Shown here in pieces: positions 7,824 to 56,338 of a DNA stretch of 64,000 nt; the first letter of the stretch is position 1; the number at the start of each line of letters is the position of its first letter. Below the pieces are notes generated by a model that was given only the letters and a program-made list of their open reading frames with translations, was not told the DNA's origin and ran no database searches. This stretch comes from Candidatus Kaiserbacteria bacterium CG10_big_fil_rev_8_21_14_0_10_47_16 (lineage in GTDB: Bacteria; Patescibacteriota; Minisyncoccia; Phycocordibacterales; UBA918): assembly GCA_002773395.1 (NCBI GenBank), contig PFBI01000006.1, forward strand, positions 156,657-220,656, given 5' to 3'. Both the position numbers and the translations under genes were made by a program.

Positions 7824-8009
7824 ATATTTGTGACCGGTGCAGAATATCATGATATGCGAGTATCGTCACGGGTTTTGTGTATGTCATCACGAGTCACTAA
7901 GTCGCTACGCTCATAAGTGCTGGCGATCCCGCCTCGTCTGTGGCAAAGCCGCATGACTCCGGCTCGGACAAGCTAAAATCCTGACGCAGGTCAGGATTTT
8001 AAACGCTTG

Positions 8010-8082
8010 TCCGCCCACTAGGACTCGAACCTAGGACCGTCTCGTTAAGAGCGAGCTGCTCTACCAACTGAGCTATGGGCGG
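8010..8082 (-). tRNA. tRNA-Lys (anticodon CTT)
   Basis: Reverse complement folds as CCGCCCA-TA-GCTC AGTTGGTA GAGC-A-GCTCG CTCTTAA CGAGA...CTAGG TTCGAGT CCTAG TGGGCGG A. Confidence 0.8.
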
Positions 8083-8221
8083 GACTGTACCATTGTGACT
8101 GCACTGTGCAGTCTGAGGAGTGCTCTTAATGTTAAGAGCGGTAGATGAGTCTAGTAGACTCATCTACCTCCACCACCTCCGCTATGGGCGGATGTAGGTC
8201 AGAGTGTACTAAATTACACCA

Positions 8222-8305
8222 CCGAAAACAAGCTATATAGTGTGTCTGGGGCGGGGATCGAACCCGCACGGTCTTGCGACCACGAAATTTTAAGTCTCGC
8301 GCGGC
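8222..8305 (-). tRNA. tRNA-Leu (anticodon TAA), type II
   Basis: Reverse complement: acceptor GTCTGGG/CCCAGAC, anticodon loop CTTAAAA, long variable arm TGGTCGCAAGACCGT, T-loop TTCGATC. Confidence 0.8.
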
Positions 8306-8397: not shown

Positions 8398-8469
8398 GGC
8401 CAGGTGGCGAAGTGGTAACGCTTCGGTTTGCAAAACCGACATGCACGGGTTCGAACCCCGTCCTGGCCT
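8398..8469 (+). tRNA. tRNA-Cys (anticodon GCA)
   Basis: GGCCAGG-TG-GCG AAGTGGTAA CGC-T-TCGGT TTGCAAA ACCGA...ACGGG TTCGAAC CCCGT CCTGGCC T. CCA is not encoded. Confidence 0.8.
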
Positions 8470-8535
8470 CAAACGAAACGGAGTGAAGTGCAGAGGTCAG
8501 GACAAAAGCGACAACAGTCGCTTTTGTTGAGGTTC

Positions 8536-8616
8536 GAACGGCGGAGCGATGTTTTGGCTATTTCTAATGCCAAAACCGCGAGCCGCGTCCAGCATTCTTA
8601 TGAACGTAGTGAATTA
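8536..8616 (+). ncRNA. conserved ~80-nt hairpin element downstream of tRNA-Cys (copy 1 of 2)
   Basis: cggagcgatgttttggctatttctaatgccaaaaccgcgagccg...cttatgaacgtagtgaattag. It is near-identical to 56216-56300. The stem gttttggc/gccaaaac becomes gtttcggc/gccgaaac in copy 2 (compensatory change). Confidence 0.4.
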
Positions 8617-8682
8617 GAAAAAGCGGGACGAACCCCGTCCTGGCCTCAAACGAAAAACTGCCAGTATACTGGCAGTTTTTTG

Positions 8683-13184: not shown

Positions 13185-13499
13185 TTATATACCAAATATT
13201 CCGCCGCGAAGAAGCGCGATGATCCCCCAAATACCAACCATGACCACGAGTACGAGTACTCCTGTTGTGATGATTTTCTTTCCTTTTTCAACTTGCGCTT
13301 CCTCTGCCCCACCAATTACCCATGTTCGAATGATTGCCCATACGAGTACGATGAAAGTGAGAGCGAAAATGAACGTAATCAACAAATTTATGATACTGAG
13401 GAAGAGATCCACAAGTGAACCGAAACTCTTTGGTGTTGCAACAGCTGCAGACGTCAGCATCGGTGTCATTACTATGAGAAGTGAGAGGAAGTATTTCAT
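13185..13499 (-). CDS. TrbC/VirB2-like T4SS-pilin-family small membrane protein (paralog 3)
   Basis: 104 aa: signal peptide, TM1, loop GGAEEAQVEKGKKI, TM2. Confidence 0.55.
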   Translation of the reverse strand: MKYFLSLLIVMTPMLTSAAVATPKSFGSLVDLFLSIINLLITFIFALTFIVLVWAIIRTWVIGGAEEAQVEKGKKIITTGVLVLVVMVGIWGIIALLRGGIFGI

Positions 13500-13954
13500 T
13501 TTGTAATTGCCGTAATAGTACCTTGTATAACTTCAAGGATTGCCCATGCGCCGAGTACAATGACGCCGCCAATAACCGCCCACGTAAGGGCTGCACGCGC
13601 TTTCTGGATTTGTGCTGGTTCACCACGTGCTGTTACAAAGAGGAATCCTGCGTACATGATAAAGAGCACGATAATAGGTATTGCAAAGACGAGAATAATC
13701 GCAATGACCGACTTGAGGAAATCAGTGAGATTGTAGTTTTCGCTTGAACTGAGTGGATTGGTAAGTTTTACTGTACCTCCTGAACCAGACCCAGGGTTTG
13801 CACCCGAAGGTACATTATCAGTTGGATTTGAACCTGAAGGAACTGAGTTACCCGAGTTGGAACCAGATGGAACAGTGTCCGCTGCAAATACCACCCCCTG
13901 TACAGGCACTATCATCATTGTAGTTACTACCGCTCCGATAAAAAAGTTTTTCAT
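13496..13954 (-). CDS. TrbC/VirB2-like T4SS-pilin-family small membrane protein (paralog 4, with N-terminal VPSGSN repeats)
   Basis: Start taken at MKNFFIG (ATG 13952-13954), 8 nt after the SBP gene stop. Repeats VPSGSNSGNSVPSGSNPTDNVPSGANP, then TM1, loop TARGEPAQIQKARAALTW, TM2. ATGA overlap with paralog 3. Confidence 0.55.
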   Translation of the reverse strand: MKNFFIGAVVTTMMIVPVQGVVFAADTVPSGSNSGNSVPSGSNPTDNVPSGANPGSGSGGTVKLTNPLSSSENYNLTDFLKSVIAIILVFAIPIIVLFIMYAGFLFVTARGEPAQIQKARAALTWAVIGGVIVLGAWAILEVIQGTITAITK

Positions 13955-13961
13955 AGTCTCA

Positions 13962-15266
13962 TTAAAATAATTGTTGCAATCTTCCAACTGCGTCTGTTAT
14001 CGATTCGCTCACTCGCTTGCGGCCACTCGTTACATCTTCGATCATCGTCTTAAAGACATTCTCACTGCCGAGCGCACTTGGGTCAAGCCACGCATGTGCA
14101 GTGAGTGCGGCGCGGTACAACACTTGTCTGTACGCACTCCCTGTTCCTAAAGCAATTTCAGCACGGACAACTGGTGCGAGGTTGAGTGCTTCGGTGAGCA
14201 TCAATGCGTTTGGCTGACTTGCAAGGACTTGTGCGGCTGCAAATCCGCCCTGCGGATTTGCAGCCGCACTTGGAATCGCAAACGCATAGAACGTACCAAA
14301 GTCACGCACCACATTTGCTCCCGCTCCTTGTGGCACCTGCGCAATATCGAAGTTTAAGTTTGGATTCGCACTTTGGAGTTCTTTGTATTCACTTCCCTTT
14401 CCAAAGTAGAGTGCAAGATCTTCTGAGAGGAATGCTTGCCGATCTTCCCTAAGCGAACGGTTCCATGAGTATGTCGTCCCCGAACTTTGTGAAAACTGCG
14501 TATAGAAAGAGAGTGCCGCCTGTCCTGGGGGAATATTATTGTTTGCTGATTTCCCAAGCGTAATCTCAATCCCTTGTGCGCCCGTTGAGACGATGTCTGT
14601 CCCCGCTTGCATAAAGAGCATCGAGAGAATGCTTTTTGCGTTTCTGATATTACTGTATTCACCGAGACCAACAGCGCTCTGGATAATCTCACGATTTGCA
14701 GCAACCTTGGTAACCGCAGGTGTCGTAACATTTACAAGCTCTTCCCATGTCGCCGGTGGCTGTGCTATCCCATTCTTCGCAAGGAGGTCGCGGTTCCAGT
14801 ACATGACGAGCGGATCCACCGCAAACGGAATTCCGTAGACGCCATCATTAAGCAAGAAGATGTCCGCACCATCAATATAAGAGTCTCTGAAGGTTCTCTC
14901 AGGGATTGTGGTAAACGATATTTTACTAAGTCGGTTTTGGTAGGTAAGTAAATCTTCACTTGAGAGGACGACGAGGTCTGGAGAACGCCCTGCCGCGATG
15001 GCGTTGAGTAATTCATAATCAAAAGTGTCTTTGTTTTTTTGTATGTAGTGCACTGCTTGAAACGCACTGTCACCACGACTGATTTCGTCGAGTACAACAC
15101 TGAACGCAGAAGCTGAGAATGTTCCCCACACCTCTACCGATTCCCCGTACAGTTGGCTCGTGCTTGAGCTCGATCCTCGAAACGTAATAAAAAAGATGAG
15201 CGCAACAATCGCGAGAAAACCGAACCCTCCTAAAAGAATGATTTGAAATGGTCGTATTGATGTCAT
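13962..15266 (-). CDS. extracellular solute-binding protein (ABC transporter substrate-binding, family 1 sugar-type)
   Basis: 434 aa, N-terminal TM anchor; overall composition and length of a periplasmic-binding-protein fold. Assignment rests on general resemblance, not a specific motif. Confidence 0.6.
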   Translation of the reverse strand: MTSIRPFQIILLGGFGFLAIVALIFFITFRGSSSSTSQLYGESVEVWGTFSASAFSVVLDEISRGDSAFQAVHYIQKNKDTFDYELLNAIAAGRSPDLVVLSSEDLLTYQNRLSKISFTTIPERTFRDSYIDGADIFLLNDGVYGIPFAVDPLVMYWNRDLLAKNGIAQPPATWEELVNVTTPAVTKVAANREIIQSAVGLGEYSNIRNAKSILSMLFMQAGTDIVSTGAQGIEITLGKSANNNIPPGQAALSFYTQFSQSSGTTYSWNRSLREDRQAFLSEDLALYFGKGSEYKELQSANPNLNFDIAQVPQGAGANVVRDFGTFYAFAIPSAAANPQGGFAAAQVLASQPNALMLTEALNLAPVVRAEIALGTGSAYRQVLYRAALTAHAWLDPSALGSENVFKTMIEDVTSGRKRVSESITDAVGRLQQLF

Positions 15267-30753: not shown

Positions 30754-30951
30754 TTAGGATTCAATGGGGGCCAGGACGTCGTACTGGCACCTAATATCCC
30801 CTTCTTCCGTCACACCTACCGCATGCCCTTTTATTCCTGCATGTACGCAGAAGTGGTCAAATTCGGAATACGGTGATCCTGTGAAGAACACCGCGTATAC
30901 CGTACCAGCAATAATGCTGAGCACCGCACCAATCAAAAGTTGCTTTCGCAT
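30754..30951 (-). CDS. hypothetical small secreted protein
   Basis: 65 aa with an N-terminal hydrophobic segment. Confidence 0.25.
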   Translation of the reverse strand: MRKQLLIGAVLSIIAGTVYAVFFTGSPYSEFDHFCVHAGIKGHAVGVTEEGDIRCQYDVLAPIES

Positions 30952-31022
30952 GGAATAATCTCCTTCTTTTCCAATGTTTTTATAGCATATTTGGATAGTT
31001 TGTCAATATACGGTGCTTGGGG

Positions 31023-31367
31023 CCGGGCTCGGTCACGAATCACTAAGTATATTTTTGCTACGCTAAAATATACTTAGTGTTCTCGACCCGTGAAAAGCAA
31101 TTCAATATTGCTTTTCACCACGCCTCCCTCGTCCACAGGACGCGGCGCTCCGGCTTTCGAGCCGAGGCTCGGCGTCTAACTCTAGTTCACTACGTTCACA
31201 AGAGTTACCTGCCCGAGCATTTGAATTCTTGCATTAGAAATAGCAAAAATATACAAATGCTTTTCGAGCCCGACCGTAGGACGCGCCTGCGTCCTACTCC
31301 CCAAGCACACATACACAAAAACCGCCCTGAGGCGGTTTTTGTGTATGTGTGCTTGGGGCCGGGCTCG
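31023..31367. repeat. ~307-bp insert next to tRNA-Phe, flanked by an exact 19-nt direct repeat of the tRNA 3' end (gtgcttggggccgggctcg at 31023-31041 and 31349-31367)
   Basis: The direct repeat is visible in the sequence. The interior is hairpin-dense and includes a 28-bp perfect palindrome at 31299-31358 that incorporates the tRNA acceptor end. Confidence 0.5.
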
Positions 31368-31422
31368 AACCGGCGACCCCTTCCTCTTCAGGGAAATGCT
31401 CTACCAACTGAGCTACCCAAGC
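31350..31422 (-). tRNA. tRNA-Phe (anticodon GAA)
   Basis: Reverse complement: GCTTGGG-TA-GCTC AGTTGGTA GAGC-A-TTTCC CTGAAGA GGAAG-GGGTC-GCCGG TTCGAGC CCGGC CCCAAGC A. Confidence 0.8.
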
Positions 31423-31496
31423 ATTTGGTTTCCGAACGCTGCTTGGGCAAGCTGTGCTTACCCAAGCAAGTGAGTACTAGAATACCAAAAAAAGTC

Positions 31497-31793
31497 TTAT
31501 TCTCCAACTTCCCCACCAAAGAACTCCTGAAAGGCTCTCACCCCAGGAATCTCGTTAAGACCAACCTGAAACGTATCATACGAAGACCCGAACGCGTTGA
31601 AGTATGGTTCCAACACATAGAAGTAGAGTGCGAACGGAAGTCCAATGAGCACAACGTACCACAGTACACGGAGAATACCGTTAAAGATACTCCAGTGGTA
31701 GAGACGCTTGAGTATCTTATTGTTGTCTTCAAGGACTCGGTTGTTTCGCTCAATGAGTTGACGTAGGAGTGTATGGTCATCTTGTTCTGACAT
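31497..31793 (-). CDS. hypothetical membrane protein
   Basis: 98 aa, two TM helices. Confidence 0.35.
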   Translation of the reverse strand: MSEQDDHTLLRQLIERNNRVLEDNNKILKRLYHWSIFNGILRVLWYVVLIGLPFALYFYVLEPYFNAFGSSYDTFQVGLNEIPGVRAFQEFFGGEVGE

Positions 31794-31831
31794 AGGAACA
31801 GTATATCAAAGGGTTTTAAAGAGATCTGGAG

Positions 31832-33661
31832 TTATCCTATCAGTTTCCCGAATGCAACAATGTCTTGTTCGAGTGACTCCAAACTTTCGAGGAATGTTTT
31901 TGTTTTTGTTGCGTCAATCCCAATAGACCCGAAAATATTCTCAACCGTGTCGCTCCCGCCAGCGCAGAGAAACGCATCAATGTTTGTAATGTATGAAGAA
32001 TCTGCCTTAAAACGCCGCGCCATGATACTACTCATGAGAATGCCGTACGCGTACGAGTACACGTAGAAACCATAACGGAAGTGTGGGATGTAGACGTACG
32101 ACGCTCCATCACGATACGTCACATCAACTGCGGGGCCGAGATACGCCTGCAGGTGCTTCTGCATCATCTTTTGCAATTCTTCTTTGGTAACTGCGCCGTG
32201 TTCACGAATCGTCCGATGTACATCGAGTTCATAATTGAAGAATGCAATCTGTCGTTGAATCGTTGCAATGTCCCGTCCGATGCGATCATGAAGAAACACA
32301 CGTGCATCTTCCGCAGTTGCTTGCGCAAGAATAGCGTCACCCACAAGCTGCTCGAAGAGTGTACTCGCTGTTTCTGCCGTCACCGTAGAGAAGTCTTGGT
32401 AAATGGTCGGTTGCCCCTTGCTTCGTTCTGCATGAATCGCATGTCCCATTTCATGAGCGAGCGTTTCAAGCGATTTAAAGTTATTGGTGTGATTGAGGAA
32501 CACAAATGTTGGCATGTTTACTGCTGCTGACATAAATGCCCCACCCCGCTTCCCAGATTTTGGATACACATCAATACTTCCGTCAGTGAGCATACGATCG
32601 AAGATTTCTCCGTACTCTTTCTTCAGTCCATAGAAGACATCCCGACAAATCTCTACCGCCTTCTCAAAGGGTATTGCGGGCGTTACACCGATACTGTCGT
32701 ACTTATTGATGTACGGGATCTTTGCTTTTTTGTGGTACTTCGCCTTGAGTTTGTAGAACTTCTTACTCAAATCAAAACCTTTTGTGCTGATTGCATTCAC
32801 CAGTGCCATCACTGACTTCTCGTTATTTTCATATCCTTCAATCGTTGCTGAATACGGTTCTTTGTATGCACGCAATTCATCAGACACTTTCTTGTGTGTC
32901 ACGATAGCGTTAAATTCGTTCTCTGCGACTTCTCCAATTTGTTCCATTTCATTCAGAATCAACTCCCAGAGTTTTTGCTTTTCTTCTGGAGCAACCATTT
33001 CAATTTCTTCCAACGCTTCAGGAATCGCAATAGTATTCTTCTTCCACACGATGGTGCGGTTACTCAAAATCTTTGATGTCCCTGACACCCACATACCATA
33101 GGACGTACTTGAACGAAGACTCATGATTCGTTCCTCTGCTTCTGTGAGCGTATGCTTCGCTTCAAGAAATACACGTGAGAGAAAGTATCGATATTTTGCA
33201 AGGGTTGGTTCAGCGAGGTATTTCTTCTGCAACGCTGTTGGGATCTTTCCAAGAACAAGCGTAAAGAAAATGATTTCATTTCCCACTTTCGTCAATCGGT
33301 CATCGAGGAGGTTACCCCGCTTTTCTGCGACATGATCTTTTGCATTAACCTCATGACGGAATGCAAAATAGCGACTCGCGCGCGCTGCCTCAGGCATTGC
33401 CGCAAGTGTTTCGTACTCTTTGAGTGCAGGAAGGAGCTTCTTCGCAGTACTGGTAAAATCCTTTCCTTTATACTTTTTTGCAAATGCGTGATACGTCTTC
33501 TCTGTCATCGCAACGTCTTTTTCAATCTTCGGATCCTTTTCAGAACGATAGTAGTGGTGTGCGAGATTCCACGATGTTTGCACTTTGCCGAGCGTTGGCA
33601 ACTTCTGTGTTGGTGTGTATGCAAATGTTTTCTTAGCTGTGCTGTGCTTCTTTTTGGACAT
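31832..33661 (-). CDS. pepF: oligoendopeptidase F (M3B family)
   Basis: 609 aa, zinc motif HEMGHAIH. Confidence 0.85.
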   Translation of the reverse strand: MSKKKHSTAKKTFAYTPTQKLPTLGKVQTSWNLAHHYYRSEKDPKIEKDVAMTEKTYHAFAKKYKGKDFTSTAKKLLPALKEYETLAAMPEAARASRYFAFRHEVNAKDHVAEKRGNLLDDRLTKVGNEIIFFTLVLGKIPTALQKKYLAEPTLAKYRYFLSRVFLEAKHTLTEAEERIMSLRSSTSYGMWVSGTSKILSNRTIVWKKNTIAIPEALEEIEMVAPEEKQKLWELILNEMEQIGEVAENEFNAIVTHKKVSDELRAYKEPYSATIEGYENNEKSVMALVNAISTKGFDLSKKFYKLKAKYHKKAKIPYINKYDSIGVTPAIPFEKAVEICRDVFYGLKKEYGEIFDRMLTDGSIDVYPKSGKRGGAFMSAAVNMPTFVFLNHTNNFKSLETLAHEMGHAIHAERSKGQPTIYQDFSTVTAETASTLFEQLVGDAILAQATAEDARVFLHDRIGRDIATIQRQIAFFNYELDVHRTIREHGAVTKEELQKMMQKHLQAYLGPAVDVTYRDGASYVYIPHFRYGFYVYSYAYGILMSSIMARRFKADSSYITNIDAFLCAGGSDTVENIFGSIGIDATKTKTFLESLESLEQDIVAFGKLIG

Positions 33662-56170: not shown

Positions 56171-56215
56171 CAAACGCGTTAAAAAGACCTCCCCTGCGGG
56201 AGGTCTTTAGCGTTT

Positions 56216-56300
56216 GTGAGCCGGAGCGATGTTTCGGCTATTCCTAATGCCGAAACCGCGAGGCCGGGGAGGAAGTGCTTATGAGCGTAAGCGAATTAGC
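56216..56300 (+). ncRNA. conserved ~80-nt hairpin element downstream of tRNA-Gly (copy 2 of 2)
   Basis: ccggagcgatgtttcggctattcctaatgccgaaaccgcgaggccg...cttatgagcgtaagcgaattag; preceded by a long terminator hairpin (56176-56214). Confidence 0.4.
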
Positions 56301-56338
56301 AACTTGACCCCAATATAGAAAACGTGTGACCCATCCTT

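Follow-up and report, generated by a model that had tools for sequence, protein, structure and literature searches.

Integron attC cassettes and the CTX-phage/IMEX elements are short modules or att sites that fold as single strands, and in dicistronic tRNA-snoRNA genes the processing is carried out by RNase Z. Genomic islands that target tRNA genes restore the target tRNA and leave a displaced fragment of it behind (PMC4383910), and the attB of such elements can be located in the T-loop (PMC1762012). Partial tRNA genes derived from integration are common in prokaryotes (PMC9897764), and bacterial Y RNAs are tRNA mimics (PMC4201824). Here, we analyzed a tRNA-Phe locus of Candidatus Kaiserbacteria within a 64-kb stretch of DNA (the window), at which an exact repeat of the tRNA 3′ end, a long palindrome and further hairpins lie close together.

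The tRNA-Phe locus and its two fused cassettes

The tRNA-Phe(GAA) gene (31349-31422, minus strand) encodes no CCA, and both ARAGORN and the Rfam tRNA model RF00005 (68.4 bits at 31350-31422) called it in full, an intact target as at island-type elements that regenerate their tRNA; its sequence is the same in the relative L018. The 19-mer GTGCTTGGGGCCGGGCTCG occurs exactly twice in the 64 kb against a chance expectation of 0.01, and none of 100 shuffled windows reached two copies. The proximal copy, reading CGAGCCCGGCCCCAAGCAC on the tRNA strand (31349-31367, minus strand), begins at T-loop nucleotide 56 and continues 1 nt past the discriminator, this last nucleotide being counted as tRNA by ARAGORN and as lying outside it by Rfam. 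The distal copy (31013-31031, minus strand), a displaced or mimicking tRNA 3′ segment, is exact over 19 nt and supplies the direct repeat characteristic of island-type elements. The original prediction had recognized both copies, one of them at the tRNA 3′ end, but placed the distal one at 31023-31041 and gave a spacing of 326; the measured repeat-to-repeat spacing is 336 nt, with an insert of 317 bp between the repeats. Read from the sequence, a promoter-like TTGACA-17-TATAAA of a 65-aa ORF comes after the distal repeat.

Immediately 3′ of the tRNA lies a perfect 28-bp palindrome (31299-31358), made up of the tRNA 3′ end, a terminator-like hairpin and the 5′ framing strand of a cassette. Its arms (31299-31326 and 31331-31358) are 28 nt each, 100% complementary and separated by a 4-nt loop, and the right arm overlaps the last 10 nt of the called tRNA, so that the claimed stem including the acceptor 3′ strand proved exact. 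An independent assembly (L134) covers the tRNA, the palindrome and both repeats at 100% identity, and the locus is therefore not an assembly artifact. Metagenome assemblies break at such partial tRNA copies and perfect palindromes: the contigs of three other, independent assemblies end at 31358-31361, the palindrome edge. Such copies and palindromes can also mislead tRNA and genomic-island annotation. No credible ORF was found inside the 317-bp insert, and a 229-aa ORF at 31077-31766 (plus strand) was rejected as spurious, as it crosses the tRNA in antisense orientation.

Between the repeats, the 317 bp comprise two fused members of a family whose structured units measure ~110 to 200 nt. Many units are framed by antisense and direct copies of the tRNA end, which accounts for both the repeat and the palindrome; these two features and the T-arm-like fragment described earlier belong together as the helix that frames a recurrent cassette and are not separate oddities. 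Directly 3′ of tRNA-Phe, CCGCC-TCAG-GGCGG is followed by TTTTT, and the hairpin core AAAAACCGCC-CTGA-GGCGGTTTTT (31317-31340) reads as a bidirectional, intrinsic-terminator-like element. A consensus terminator scan did not list this hairpin, probably because its stem runs through the T tract, itself paired in the long palindrome. Hairpins with a GC stem and a T tract, but of other sequences, follow the tRNA in L018, L042, L052, L056, L085, and L118.

The first part of the 5′ framing strand, GTGCTTGGGG (31299-31308, minus strand), complements the acceptor 3′ strand in antisense and can pair with the tRNA end or with the distal repeat; in the predicted fold it pairs with 31013-31022. The framing strand is split by a hairpin, hp1 (GTAGGACGC-loop-GCGTCCTAC, 31276-31297, minus strand), and other units have a hairpin at the equivalent position. 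The second part, GGTCGGGCTCGAA (31263-31275, minus strand), was identified by repeat search and in the predicted fold and is antisense to T-loop/T-stem nucleotides 56 to 66, with one G.U pair. It corresponds to the T-arm-like fragment TTCGAGCCCGACC, which is indeed present, although at 31263-31275 and not at 31265-31277 as first given.

The core of cassette 1 (31163-31281, minus strand) was recovered by a covariance model of the family, R1 (77 bits, E 1e-17), by nhmmer and in the alignment. It contains one hairpin with the conserved loop UAUUUCUAAU and one with the loop GAACGUAGUGAA, and its own 3′ tRNA copy is reduced to CGAGCC. At the cassette junction (GACGCCGAGCC/TCGGCTCGAAAGCC, 31152-31176, minus strand), the repeat, terminator and 5′ frame expected for cassette 2 are absent, and from comparison with complete arrays such as L056 we infer that a palindromic segment was probably deleted here. 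The core of cassette 2 (31013-31140, minus strand; R1, 65.6 bits, E 1e-14; nhmmer, E 2.6e-29 over 31013-31164) terminates in the conserved end CTTAGTGATTCGTGAC, and its 3′ end is also found in L118, L098, and L110. It includes two of the hairpins that had been described as perfect, which holds for the 12 bp at 31090-31118 but not for the 18 bp at 31041-31079, where there is one mismatch. For the unit from 31310 to 31013, the predicted fold has a free energy of −150 kcal/mol (z = −11.75) with both ends paired.

The original prediction raised the question of whether the palindrome could sequester the acceptor stem; on that reading, it would be a regulatory 3′ trailer that controls tRNA-Phe maturation. 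When the transcript was folded with the whole palindrome, the minimum-energy structure was indeed a predicted 27-bp hairpin replacing the acceptor stem (−73.6 kcal/mol), and palindromes running into the tRNA end recur with other sequences in L085, L118, L052, and L042 and at the tRNA-Lys gene of the window. The U tract precedes the distal arm, however, and a transcript ending at that tract is predicted to keep the cloverleaf next to a 12-bp terminator-like hairpin, so acceptor sequestration would be confined to a read-through transcript. The distal arm moreover doubles as the 5′ strand of the cassette's closing helix. In the closest relative, L018, the palindrome enters the identical tRNA by only 2 to 3 nt; the inverted copy is also absent within about 45 nt of the tRNA in 42 of 54 distinct tRNA-Phe loci. 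We therefore give the trailer hardly any credence.

A family of units behind tRNA genes

Patescibacteria genomes are among the smallest and most streamlined, yet four of the six tRNAs in the window (Phe, Cys, Gly, and Lys) carry units and thus trail 100 to 340 bp of conserved non-coding structure. The dense structure at tRNA-Phe, thought at first to be unusual for this genome, is matched by homologous units behind the other three. A sister cassette follows tRNA-Cys (8471-8655, plus strand; R1, 91.5 bits) and terminates with 27 nt that exactly repeat the end of its tRNA (8452-8478 and 8629-8655), next to which comes a terminator (8653-8680). Behind tRNA-Gly(GCC) there is a sister module of terminator and core (56171-56312, plus strand; R1, 82.7 bits) without a distal tRNA copy. 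The third is a sister cassette behind tRNA-Lys(CTT) (7877-8008, minus strand; R1, 54.6 bits), whose terminator palindrome extends into the tRNA end (CGGACAAGC at 7965-7973; GCTTGTCCG at 8005-8013).

Searching with nhmmer gave 23 non-redundant matches, 22 of which lie 45 to 256 nt downstream of a same-strand tRNA; the remaining one (L104) is cut by the contig start. In 576 kb of Patescibacteria DNA, the R1 model made 31 matches, and except for one that is tRNA-Phe itself and two at contig edges, all were located no more than 330 nt 3′ of a tRNA (Phe, Val, Gly, Arg, Cys, or Lys). These results established family membership and tRNA linkage: across the 576 kb, the units are almost confined to the 330 nt 3′ of same-strand tRNA genes.

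A complete member has five parts, namely, (i) often, a terminator hairpin of its own; (ii) a 5′ segment antisense to the last ~19 to 21 nt of the neighboring tRNA, often split by a hairpin; (iii) a conserved two-domain core; (iv) the motif ..GAC(N)C; and (v) a direct tRNA copy running from T-loop nucleotide 56/57 to the end. The 19-nt repeat noted at tRNA-Phe is thus part v, and the palindrome is the tRNA end plus parts i and ii. Arrays of two or three units are present in L056, L092, L052, L109, and the window. The module behind tRNA-Gly of the window and that behind tRNA-Phe of L018 are identical at 124 of 141 positions (88%), compared with 49 to 66% for other unit pairs.

In six tRNA genes representing five isoacceptors, the distal copies start at T-loop nucleotide 56/57 (Phe, 19 nt; Cys, 27 nt in the window and 19 nt in L145; Val; Gly-CCC, with three copies; and Arg-CCT). 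Their right boundary is variable, and each copy is followed by its own, different terminator. A fixed-length target-site duplication was accordingly rejected, the flanking repeats being 11, 19, 19, and 27 nt long with a constant left and a variable right end. No distal tRNA copy is present at tRNA-Gly and tRNA-Lys of the window, tRNA-Phe of L018 or tRNA-Val of L090, and the copies in L098, L062, L085, L109, and L067 are degenerate without compensation.

The combination of a regenerated tRNA and a displaced 3′ fragment that begins within the T-loop is the hallmark of islands (PMC4383910), and the frequent degeneration of distal copies is likewise what one would expect if the units were CIME-like decay scars of large integrative elements or prophages, of which only the att-flanking arms remain. 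We consider such an origin improbable. The same core of ~120 nt, with compensatory substitutions, stands behind six kinds of tRNA in many lineages, and random deletion remnants would hardly share a covarying fold. Within one housekeeping window, four of six tRNAs have units; among 105 loci of up to ~15 kb, none has repeats far apart around an integrase; and neither viral contigs (for the 19-mer and core motifs) nor phage and plasmid sequences (for the unit) gave a match. The latter searches comprised IMG/VR, which yielded neither the 19-mer nor either of two core motifs, and blastn of the unit against INPHARED and PLSDB, which returned no match. Six 17-mer matches in IMG/VR were dismissed as chance, having no covariance-model match and no adjacent tRNA.

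The Pfam scan covered 46 of the 50 window ORFs of at least 130 aa. Most of the scanned ORFs are housekeeping genes and about ten have no Pfam match; no integrase, transposase or reverse-transcriptase family was found among the 46. With Rfam 15 at gathering scores, only tRNA passed in the window and 20 loci, and in E-value mode the type A and type B unit regions gave only tRNA, generic hairpin (miRNA-like) or terminator-like matches. YrlA, tmRNA, SRP, 6S, known ribozymes, and OMEGA/HEARO RNAs were ruled out as identities, as no Rfam 15 model of these matched the units. Literature on tRNA-like RNAs, structured RNAs, MITEs and small RNAs of Patescibacteria/CPR yielded no description of them. The family is thus undescribed, being absent from Rfam 15 and from the searchable literature. 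Three resemblances were also discarded: a hammerhead-like core (CUGACGC does not match CUGANGA), a T-box specifier (UUC in the hairpin loop also occurs in Cys and Gly units) and a retroviral primer-binding site (the pairing partner of the antisense segment is the genomic trailer CAC and not CCA).

Folding, turnover, and possible origins of the units

The units have a covarying structure. In a model-independent MAFFT alignment, compensatory changes were seen in 12 of 17 RNAalifold pairs. In the model-fitted alignment, 93.8% of cells pair versus 69.9% in shuffles, double changes occur at 14 of the 17 pairs, none of 500 shuffles reached the observed covariation score, and slid controls gave 28 to 44% pairing. 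Folding favors the sense strand in 20 of 25 units (mean, −4.3 kcal/mol; p = 2e-4). Counting non-canonical pairs in the core (14 G.U versus 10 A.C) was indecisive as a strand test, the energy comparison being clearer. Conserved loops include UAUUYCUAAU, GAACGUAGUGAA and CUUAG...UUAG. In the predicted folds of window and L056 units, the 5′ antisense segments pair with the 3′ tRNA copy to give acceptor-like and T-like stems; the prediction for L056 units combines three arms with a T-like stem and an acceptor-like stem of 8 bp (−73.4 kcal/mol, z = −7.25). The covariation and sense-strand bias fit an RNA function and a DNA function equally well.

One reading of these folds is that the units are genes for tRNA-like noncoding RNAs, in which a conserved core sits on a scaffold copied from the adjacent tRNA (acceptor-like plus T-like stems), the repeat and the antisense segment being the two strands of the closing helix. 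Such RNAs would be made by co-transcription or terminator read-through and released by RNase P and RNase Z, and gain, loss and arrays would come from ordinary recombination between repeats; the RNA reading is compatible with mobility. The reading predicts discrete unit RNAs from GCUUGGGG to ..CAAGCA with a non-templated CCA. It agrees with the invariable position of the units directly downstream of a tRNA on the same strand, with the better folding of the sense strand and the conserved loops, with the tRNA-like L056 fold, and with six closing helices whose non-Watson-Crick pairs are all G.U on the tRNA-sense strand. At tRNA-Cys of the window, L043, L048, and L094, moreover, no terminator separates tRNA and unit and one follows the unit, and the frame keeps to the local tRNA-Cys sequence in two genomes. 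At tRNA-Phe and many other loci, however, a terminator-like hairpin with a U tract stands between tRNA and unit and leaves no room for a promoter, so that expression of the unit would need read-through. The uncompensated decay of distal copies in the five loci named above, the imperfect closing helices of type B, the many members without any acceptor-like frame, and a copy number and turnover odd for a housekeeping RNA also speak against it, and we regard it as unlikely, though deserving serious consideration.

Presence, absence and swapping of units are evident among relatives. The window and L145 both have a unit at tRNA-Cys, but the site is empty in the closest relative there, L144; likewise, a unit is present in L048 and absent from L072, both of which share the downstream terminator and hsp20 gene. 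L085 and L109 are 92% identical upstream and share the distal end, and their terminators and unit types differ. At tRNA-Phe, L018 carries different units and is not an empty site; its terminator palindrome also differs although the tRNA is identical, contrary to the conserved tRNA-Phe terminator without insert polymorphism that would have refuted the original prediction. The insert behavior suggested by the original prediction is therefore upheld for the family, but not as polymorphism within the species, since five same-species assemblies are identical at the tRNA-Phe locus. GTDB representatives reached through the neighboring pepF were set aside as too distant (≤57% identity) and without a tRNA-Phe nearby; in relatives with 63 to 72% pepF identity, pepF is followed by alaS instead.

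The frames follow the local tRNA. Between the window and L145, both the distal copy and the 5′ antisense strand track the five substitutions that separate the two tRNA-Cys genes, which requires re-insertion, gene conversion or selection on an RNA helix. Local framing would also result from hairpin-driven template switching (quasipalindrome extension or correction) at tRNA terminators, by which the tRNA end is copied repeatedly, first inverted and then in direct orientation, into neutral, self-perpetuating palindromic clutter. A palindrome perfect at 28 of 28 positions in a fast-evolving spacer, an inverted copy in L057 that extends far into the tRNA where the contig ends, and the probable loss of a palindromic segment at the unit junction near 31165 are consistent with this process. 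It does not explain why core and loops are conserved, with compensatory changes, in different lineages and behind different kinds of tRNA, why the left boundary is always at T-loop nucleotide 56/57, or why a whole module is 88% identical behind two different tRNAs, and we judge it very improbable as the source of the family.

Our preferred, still tentative interpretation, which we would put just short of an even chance, is that these small, ORF-less, base-paired cassettes are non-autonomous insertion elements targeting tRNA 3′ ends in Patescibacteria. In its favor are the tRNA linkage, the covarying structure, the displaced tRNA fragments, the turnover among relatives and the spread of one module between tRNAs. 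They would be non-autonomous because the units hold no ORFs and the scanned window ORFs no recombinase families. Cassettes may enter and leave by recombination between the T-loop and the tRNA 3′ end, with the enzyme supplied in trans; the tRNA would be regenerated and a displaced 3′ fragment left, by analogy with tRNA-targeting integrative elements. The strand-specific fold would recreate the duplex tRNA gene end and could then act as the substrate for recombination, in the manner of integron attC or CTX-phage attP. At tRNA-Phe, an older distal and a newer proximal cassette may have become joined when the intervening palindromic segment was lost. An excised circle would show the permuted junction ..GTGAC-CGAGCCCGGCCCCAAGCAC-ACATACAC.., with no tRNA body flanking it.

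Several observations weigh against mobility. Neither an excised nor a circular form was seen, and no recombinase was linked to the units among the 46 window ORFs. The invariance of the tRNA-Phe locus in five assemblies, the members without a distal tRNA copy and the tracking of the local tRNA-Cys substitutions count in the same direction. On the 5′ side of the distal copy, Phe-type units have ..GTGAC or ..GACGC, which provides no T-stem partner with the spacing expected for a recombinase; the distal junction is thus unlike a canonical core site. A simple attP model faces one core behind different tRNAs with a matching tRNA end each time; it would thus need tRNA-specific lineages or copying from the target. 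A broader form of the mobile-cassette interpretation holds that the fold is either a single-stranded recombination substrate or a tRNA mimic hijacking transcription and RNase P/Z processing, and that such tRNA-framed cassettes have colonized about a fifth to a third of tRNA genes in our biased sample; this we consider somewhat less likely than not.

If mobile, the units would be the smallest tRNA-targeting integrative elements described and would suggest a T-loop recombination system acting in trans, possibly via folded single strands. If they are RNAs, they would form a new tRNA-mimicking family expressed together with tRNAs; the RNA biology of these organisms is nearly unexplored.

Comparison with known systems

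Like MITEs and REPINs, the units are small, non-coding, multi-copy and hairpin-rich, with inverted terminal segments, and vary among relatives; unlike them, they lie strictly at the tRNA 3′ flank in one orientation. Their termini are not constant as in MITEs, since they vary with the neighboring tRNA (Phe, Cys, Val, Gly, Arg) and are missing in several members, and they have a variable flanking repeat of 19 to 27 nt in place of a fixed short target-site duplication. We know of no parent transposase for them. With integron attC, CTX and IMEX systems they share arrays at one entry site, imperfect palindromes that refold into a duplex site and one strand that folds better. The entry site, however, is a tRNA gene end and not attI or dif, the cassettes have no ORFs, and a conserved branched core replaces the simple attC; in the 64-kb window, no integrase (46 ORFs, Pfam) and no link to IntI or Xer was found.

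CIMEs, the non-autonomous att-flanked derivatives of ICEs, resemble the units in having att-like repeats and no recombination module, and in that they would rely on an enzyme in trans (PMC5704250). Each CIME is what remains of a specific ICE after degeneration and is usually single-copy and kilobases in length, unlike the units, a multi-copy family with a conserved structure of its own. As in tRNA-targeting islands and prophages with tyrosine integrases and a T-loop attB, the tRNA is intact and a direct copy of its 3′ end stands at the far end (PMC4383910, PMC1762012), and there is tandem accretion at one tRNA as well as filled and empty sites among relatives, the latter seen for sister units (tRNA-Cys versus L144; L048 versus L072). 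In contrast to such islands, the units measure 110 to 340 bp and not kilobases, carry no integrase or ORF, contain a covarying folded core with an internal antisense copy of the tRNA end, and form one core family over at least six tRNA species, many members being without a distal copy. Finally, the predicted acceptor-like stem stacked on a T-like stem recalls YrlA, the tRNA-like domain of tmRNA, plant t-elements and dicistronic tRNA-snoRNA transcripts. As with tRNA-linked co-transcripts, the position behind a tRNA would permit release by RNase P/Z (PMC4201824). The units differ from these tRNA-like RNAs in that their frame copies whichever tRNA adjoins and a terminator often lies in between.

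The tRNA-Phe repeat and palindrome

ARAGORN places a tRNA-Phe(GAA) gene on the minus strand (31349-31422; Rfam, 68.4 bits), and the 19-mer GTGCTTGGGGCCGGGCTCG (plus strand) occurs in exactly two copies, at 31013-31031 and 31349-31367, versus 0.01 expected by chance, with none of 100 shuffles giving two. The original prediction of a duplicated tRNA 3' end was right about the two copies; its spacing of 326 instead of 336 came from setting the distal copy 10 nt further right than it lies. In tRNA orientation the sequence is CGAGCCCGGCCCCAAGCAC, which runs from T-loop nucleotide 56 through the 3' strands of the T stem and the acceptor stem to the discriminator plus a single extra nucleotide; this last nucleotide belongs to the tRNA according to ARAGORN and lies outside it according to Rfam.

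The perfect 28-bp palindrome predicted beside the gene was fully matched (31299-31326/31331-31358), and the T-arm-like fragment was found at the corrected position 31263-31275. The palindrome centre, AAAAACCGCC-CTGA-GGCGGTTTTT, looks like an intrinsic terminator for both directions; this hairpin was absent from the list of a consensus terminator scanner, and "terminator" is therefore a reading of the sequence. Folding bore out the suggested sequestration of the acceptor in part, since the acceptor stem was displaced only if the whole palindrome was transcribed, and the cloverleaf was kept in a transcript ending at the U tract. One independent assembly spans the entire stretch at 100% identity, and in three further independent assemblies (JGI 3300004210, 3300004209 and ENA ERZ27293414) contigs start or stop at 31358-31361, the palindrome edge; such cassettes fragment metagenome assemblies.

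The cassettes, or units, are structured noncoding blocks of about 110 to 200 nt located 3' of a tRNA gene, many of them framed by a 5' segment antisense to the neighboring tRNA end and a 3' direct copy of it. A distal unit has the distal 19-mer as its 3' frame. In the palindrome, the tRNA end makes up the right arm, a proximal unit's 5' frame makes up the left, and the terminator occupies the tip. A hairpin (31276-31297) interrupts that 5' frame, whose second half is the T-arm-like fragment. The 317 bp hold two cores (31163-31281 and 31013-31140), joined at about 31165 between GACGCCGAGCC and TCGGCTCGAAAG. Relative to complete arrays, this junction lacks the distal unit's repeat, terminator and 5' frame, a palindromic segment that was probably deleted. 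L018, the contig locus of the closest relative found (83% pepF identity, gene order as in the window), carries an identical tRNA-Phe, a different long terminator palindrome in place of the conserved one considered as the opposing case, and, past this palindrome, a block with homology to window 31140-31215.

The window belongs to a 396-kb JGI groundwater contig of a Patescibacteria (Parcubacteria-like) genome. Genes near tRNA-Phe are ordinary (M3 peptidase, Hsp20, PrsW and small ORFs). A Pfam scan of 46 of the 50 window ORFs of at least 130 aa gave no match to an integrase, transposase or reverse-transcriptase family; most of the 46 are housekeeping and about ten had no match. Gene order breaks at tRNA-Phe (window 31497-33661 versus L022, L023, L026 and L027): pepF and a small ORF precede alaS in relatives with 63 to 72% pepF identity, and precede tRNA-Phe, cassettes and a convergent hsp20 in the window and L018. 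In the 5' leader, the hairpin TGCTTGGGTAAGC-ACA-GCTTGCCCAAGCA (31440-31468, minus) mimics the acceptor stem, and TACCCAAGCA, the first 10 nt of tRNA-Phe (31414-31423), is duplicated 45 nt upstream (31459-31468); the L018 leader is without this stretch of about 47 nt. A 65-aa ORF (30754-30951, minus) with a TTGACA/TATAAA promoter-like site and a ribosome-binding site lies between the cassettes and a conserved 81-aa ORF. L018 lacks the 65-aa gene and has the 81-aa orthologue, read as a 69-aa ORF on the tRNA strand (L018:7564-7773), where the gene caller put an ORF on the opposite strand.

Units behind tRNA genes

Scanning metagenome contigs for the 19-mer gave 105 loci, several with two or three direct copies 170 to 250 nt apart. 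At one contig locus, L056, the same ordered set follows the tRNA twice: terminator, GCTTGGGG (matching the 5' acceptor strand of the tRNA), hairpins, GTCCGGGTAGG, a long hairpin, GACAC and CGAGCCCGGCCCCAAGCAC. The sole difference between the two copies lies in one hairpin, at a position that is hairpin-forming in both. A profile from such units returned 23 nonredundant matches. In 22 of these the match follows a tRNA on the same strand after 45 to 256 nt, and the remaining one is truncated where its contig starts. With a covariance model, 31 matches were obtained over 576 kb; one was tRNA-Phe itself, two lay at contig edges, and all others followed a tRNA on the same strand by no more than 330 nt. 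Units were present in the searched loci at Phe (16/54), Val (3/4), Gly (2/19), Arg (1/35), Cys (1/1) and Lys (1/1), and in the window behind tRNA-Phe (two fused copies), tRNA-Cys, tRNA-Gly and tRNA-Lys and nowhere else. Among 54 distinct tRNA-Phe loci, 12 have the inverted GTGCTTGGGG no more than about 45 nt away from the gene (leaving out four matches inside the hsp20 gene), and in 12 the tRNA end is repeated in direct orientation.

Besides the core type treated so far (type A), core types B and C occur in other loci in the same frame. Type B (..GGGGTCGGG-hairpin-CCCGTGGAGGAAGG..GGAAAACCGWGGGTTTCCCAG..; L048:3470-3600, L028, L094, L116, L109 and L111), which had no match in Rfam, has the end of tRNA-Phe as its frame, in antisense and in direct copy. 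Behind a tRNA-Gly(CCC), an array with three copies of GATTCTMGCATCCCGCAC (L092:1600-2041, minus) combines a unit with a third kind of core and a type A unit, each preceded by TTTCGAGCGCTTGACA. The 159-nt spacer between tRNA-Leu(TAA) and tRNA-Lys (window 8083-8241, minus) was not detected by the unit model and may be another cassette type; in it lie three near-perfect hairpins, along with a sequence that partly copies the 5' end of tRNA-Lys (ccgctatgggcgg versus gagctatgggcgg). The motif GAACGTAGTGAA, or variants like AAACGAAG, forms hairpin loops inside units (window 31180-31195 and 8600-8612) and the first bases after several tRNA genes (L048, L043, L028 and L094), and may represent a shared recognition or processing signal. 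At L057:2012-2083, tRNA-Phe and a terminator are followed, up to the contig end, by the inverted tRNA 3' part, of which 27 nt or more extend into the T arm; it represents either another copy of the tRNA in convergent orientation or an artifact of fold-back during assembly.

Core structure and exchange of units

RNAalifold on a plain MAFFT alignment of 19 units yielded 17 consensus pairs, with compensatory double changes in 12. In the model-fitted alignment of the 31 matches, 93.8% of cells pair versus 69.9% in shuffles, double changes occur in 14 of the 17 pairs (110 cells), the covariation score was reached by none of 500 shuffles, and sliding the partners lowered pairing to 28 to 44%; since this alignment leans on the model and the sequences are related, the numbers lend support but do not amount to formal proof. 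Single-stranded motifs that are conserved include the loop sequences UAUUYCUAAU and GAACGUAGUGAA, and CUU...UUAG is invariant around the third hairpin. Three explanations, that the units are scars of large elements, that the palindrome is a purely regulatory trailer, or that palindromes grew neutrally, each account for part of the data but leave this conserved core unexplained. For the window unit at 31310-31013 the folding energy is -150 kcal/mol (z = -11.75), and the segments GUGCUUGG and GGUCGGGCUCG from its 5' part are predicted to pair with the repeat at its 3' end. In 20 of 25 units, folding is more favorable for the tRNA-sense strand than for the complementary one (mean, -4.3 kcal/mol; Wilcoxon p = 2e-4); core G.U versus A.C pairs (14 versus 10) do not decide the strand.

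Behind the window tRNA-Cys, the unit closes with 27 nt that duplicate the tRNA end exactly (8452-8478 and 8629-8655). The window's closest relative here, L144, has the orthologous tRNA-Cys, 30 nt with only a terminator, and then trhO. The more distant L145 has a homologous unit, in which both the 19-nt distal copy and the antisense 5' strand agree with the tRNA-Cys of L145 itself; that gene and the window tRNA-Cys differ at five positions in the copied stretch. Near trhO lie small T4SS-pilin-like proteins (Pfam PF18895; window 13496-13987, also L144, L145 and L147), in tandem in relatives (two in L144, three in L145 and L147), with one seen in the window. L048 has a type B unit and L072 none, the tRNA, terminator and downstream hsp20 being common to both. 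L085 and L109 are 92% identical upstream and have different terminators and unit types with the same degenerate distal end. The terminator-plus-core modules of the window tRNA-Gly and the L018 tRNA-Phe are identical at 124 of 141 positions, with compensatory changes in two hairpins; remaining unit pairs share 49 to 66% identity. For Val, Gly-CCC (three copies) and Arg-CCT as well, T-loop nucleotide 56 or 57 is where the distal copies start, with variable right ends and some mismatches.

The strand bias of folding, and a frame that tracks the local tRNA, favor the main rival explanation, in which a unit would give a tRNA-like RNA that is coexpressed with its tRNA and cut free by RNase P/Z; this would be compatible with cassette mobility. 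However, a terminator often intervenes between tRNA and unit, and distal copies decay without compensation. Our preferred reading is that the units are nonautonomous cassettes specific for tRNA 3' ends, which would be moved by an enzyme supplied in trans, possibly via a folded single strand.

Comparison with tRNA-targeting integrative elements

The units matched no Rfam family and none of the viral, phage or plasmid sequences searched, and no description of them was found in the literature searched. Integrative elements that target tRNA genes are marked by a regenerated tRNA plus a displaced 3' fragment from the T-loop (PMC4383910, PMC1762012). The units share this signature, their fragment starting in the T-loop, as well as different terminators per copy, arrays and, at sister loci of the one behind tRNA-Phe, presence/absence polymorphism. 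There is a substantial chance that they are a new class rather than a variety of such insertions. Unlike the known elements, they are ten to a hundred times smaller, encode nothing, have a common covarying core and an internal antisense copy of the tRNA end, and stand behind many tRNA species with a matching frame each time.
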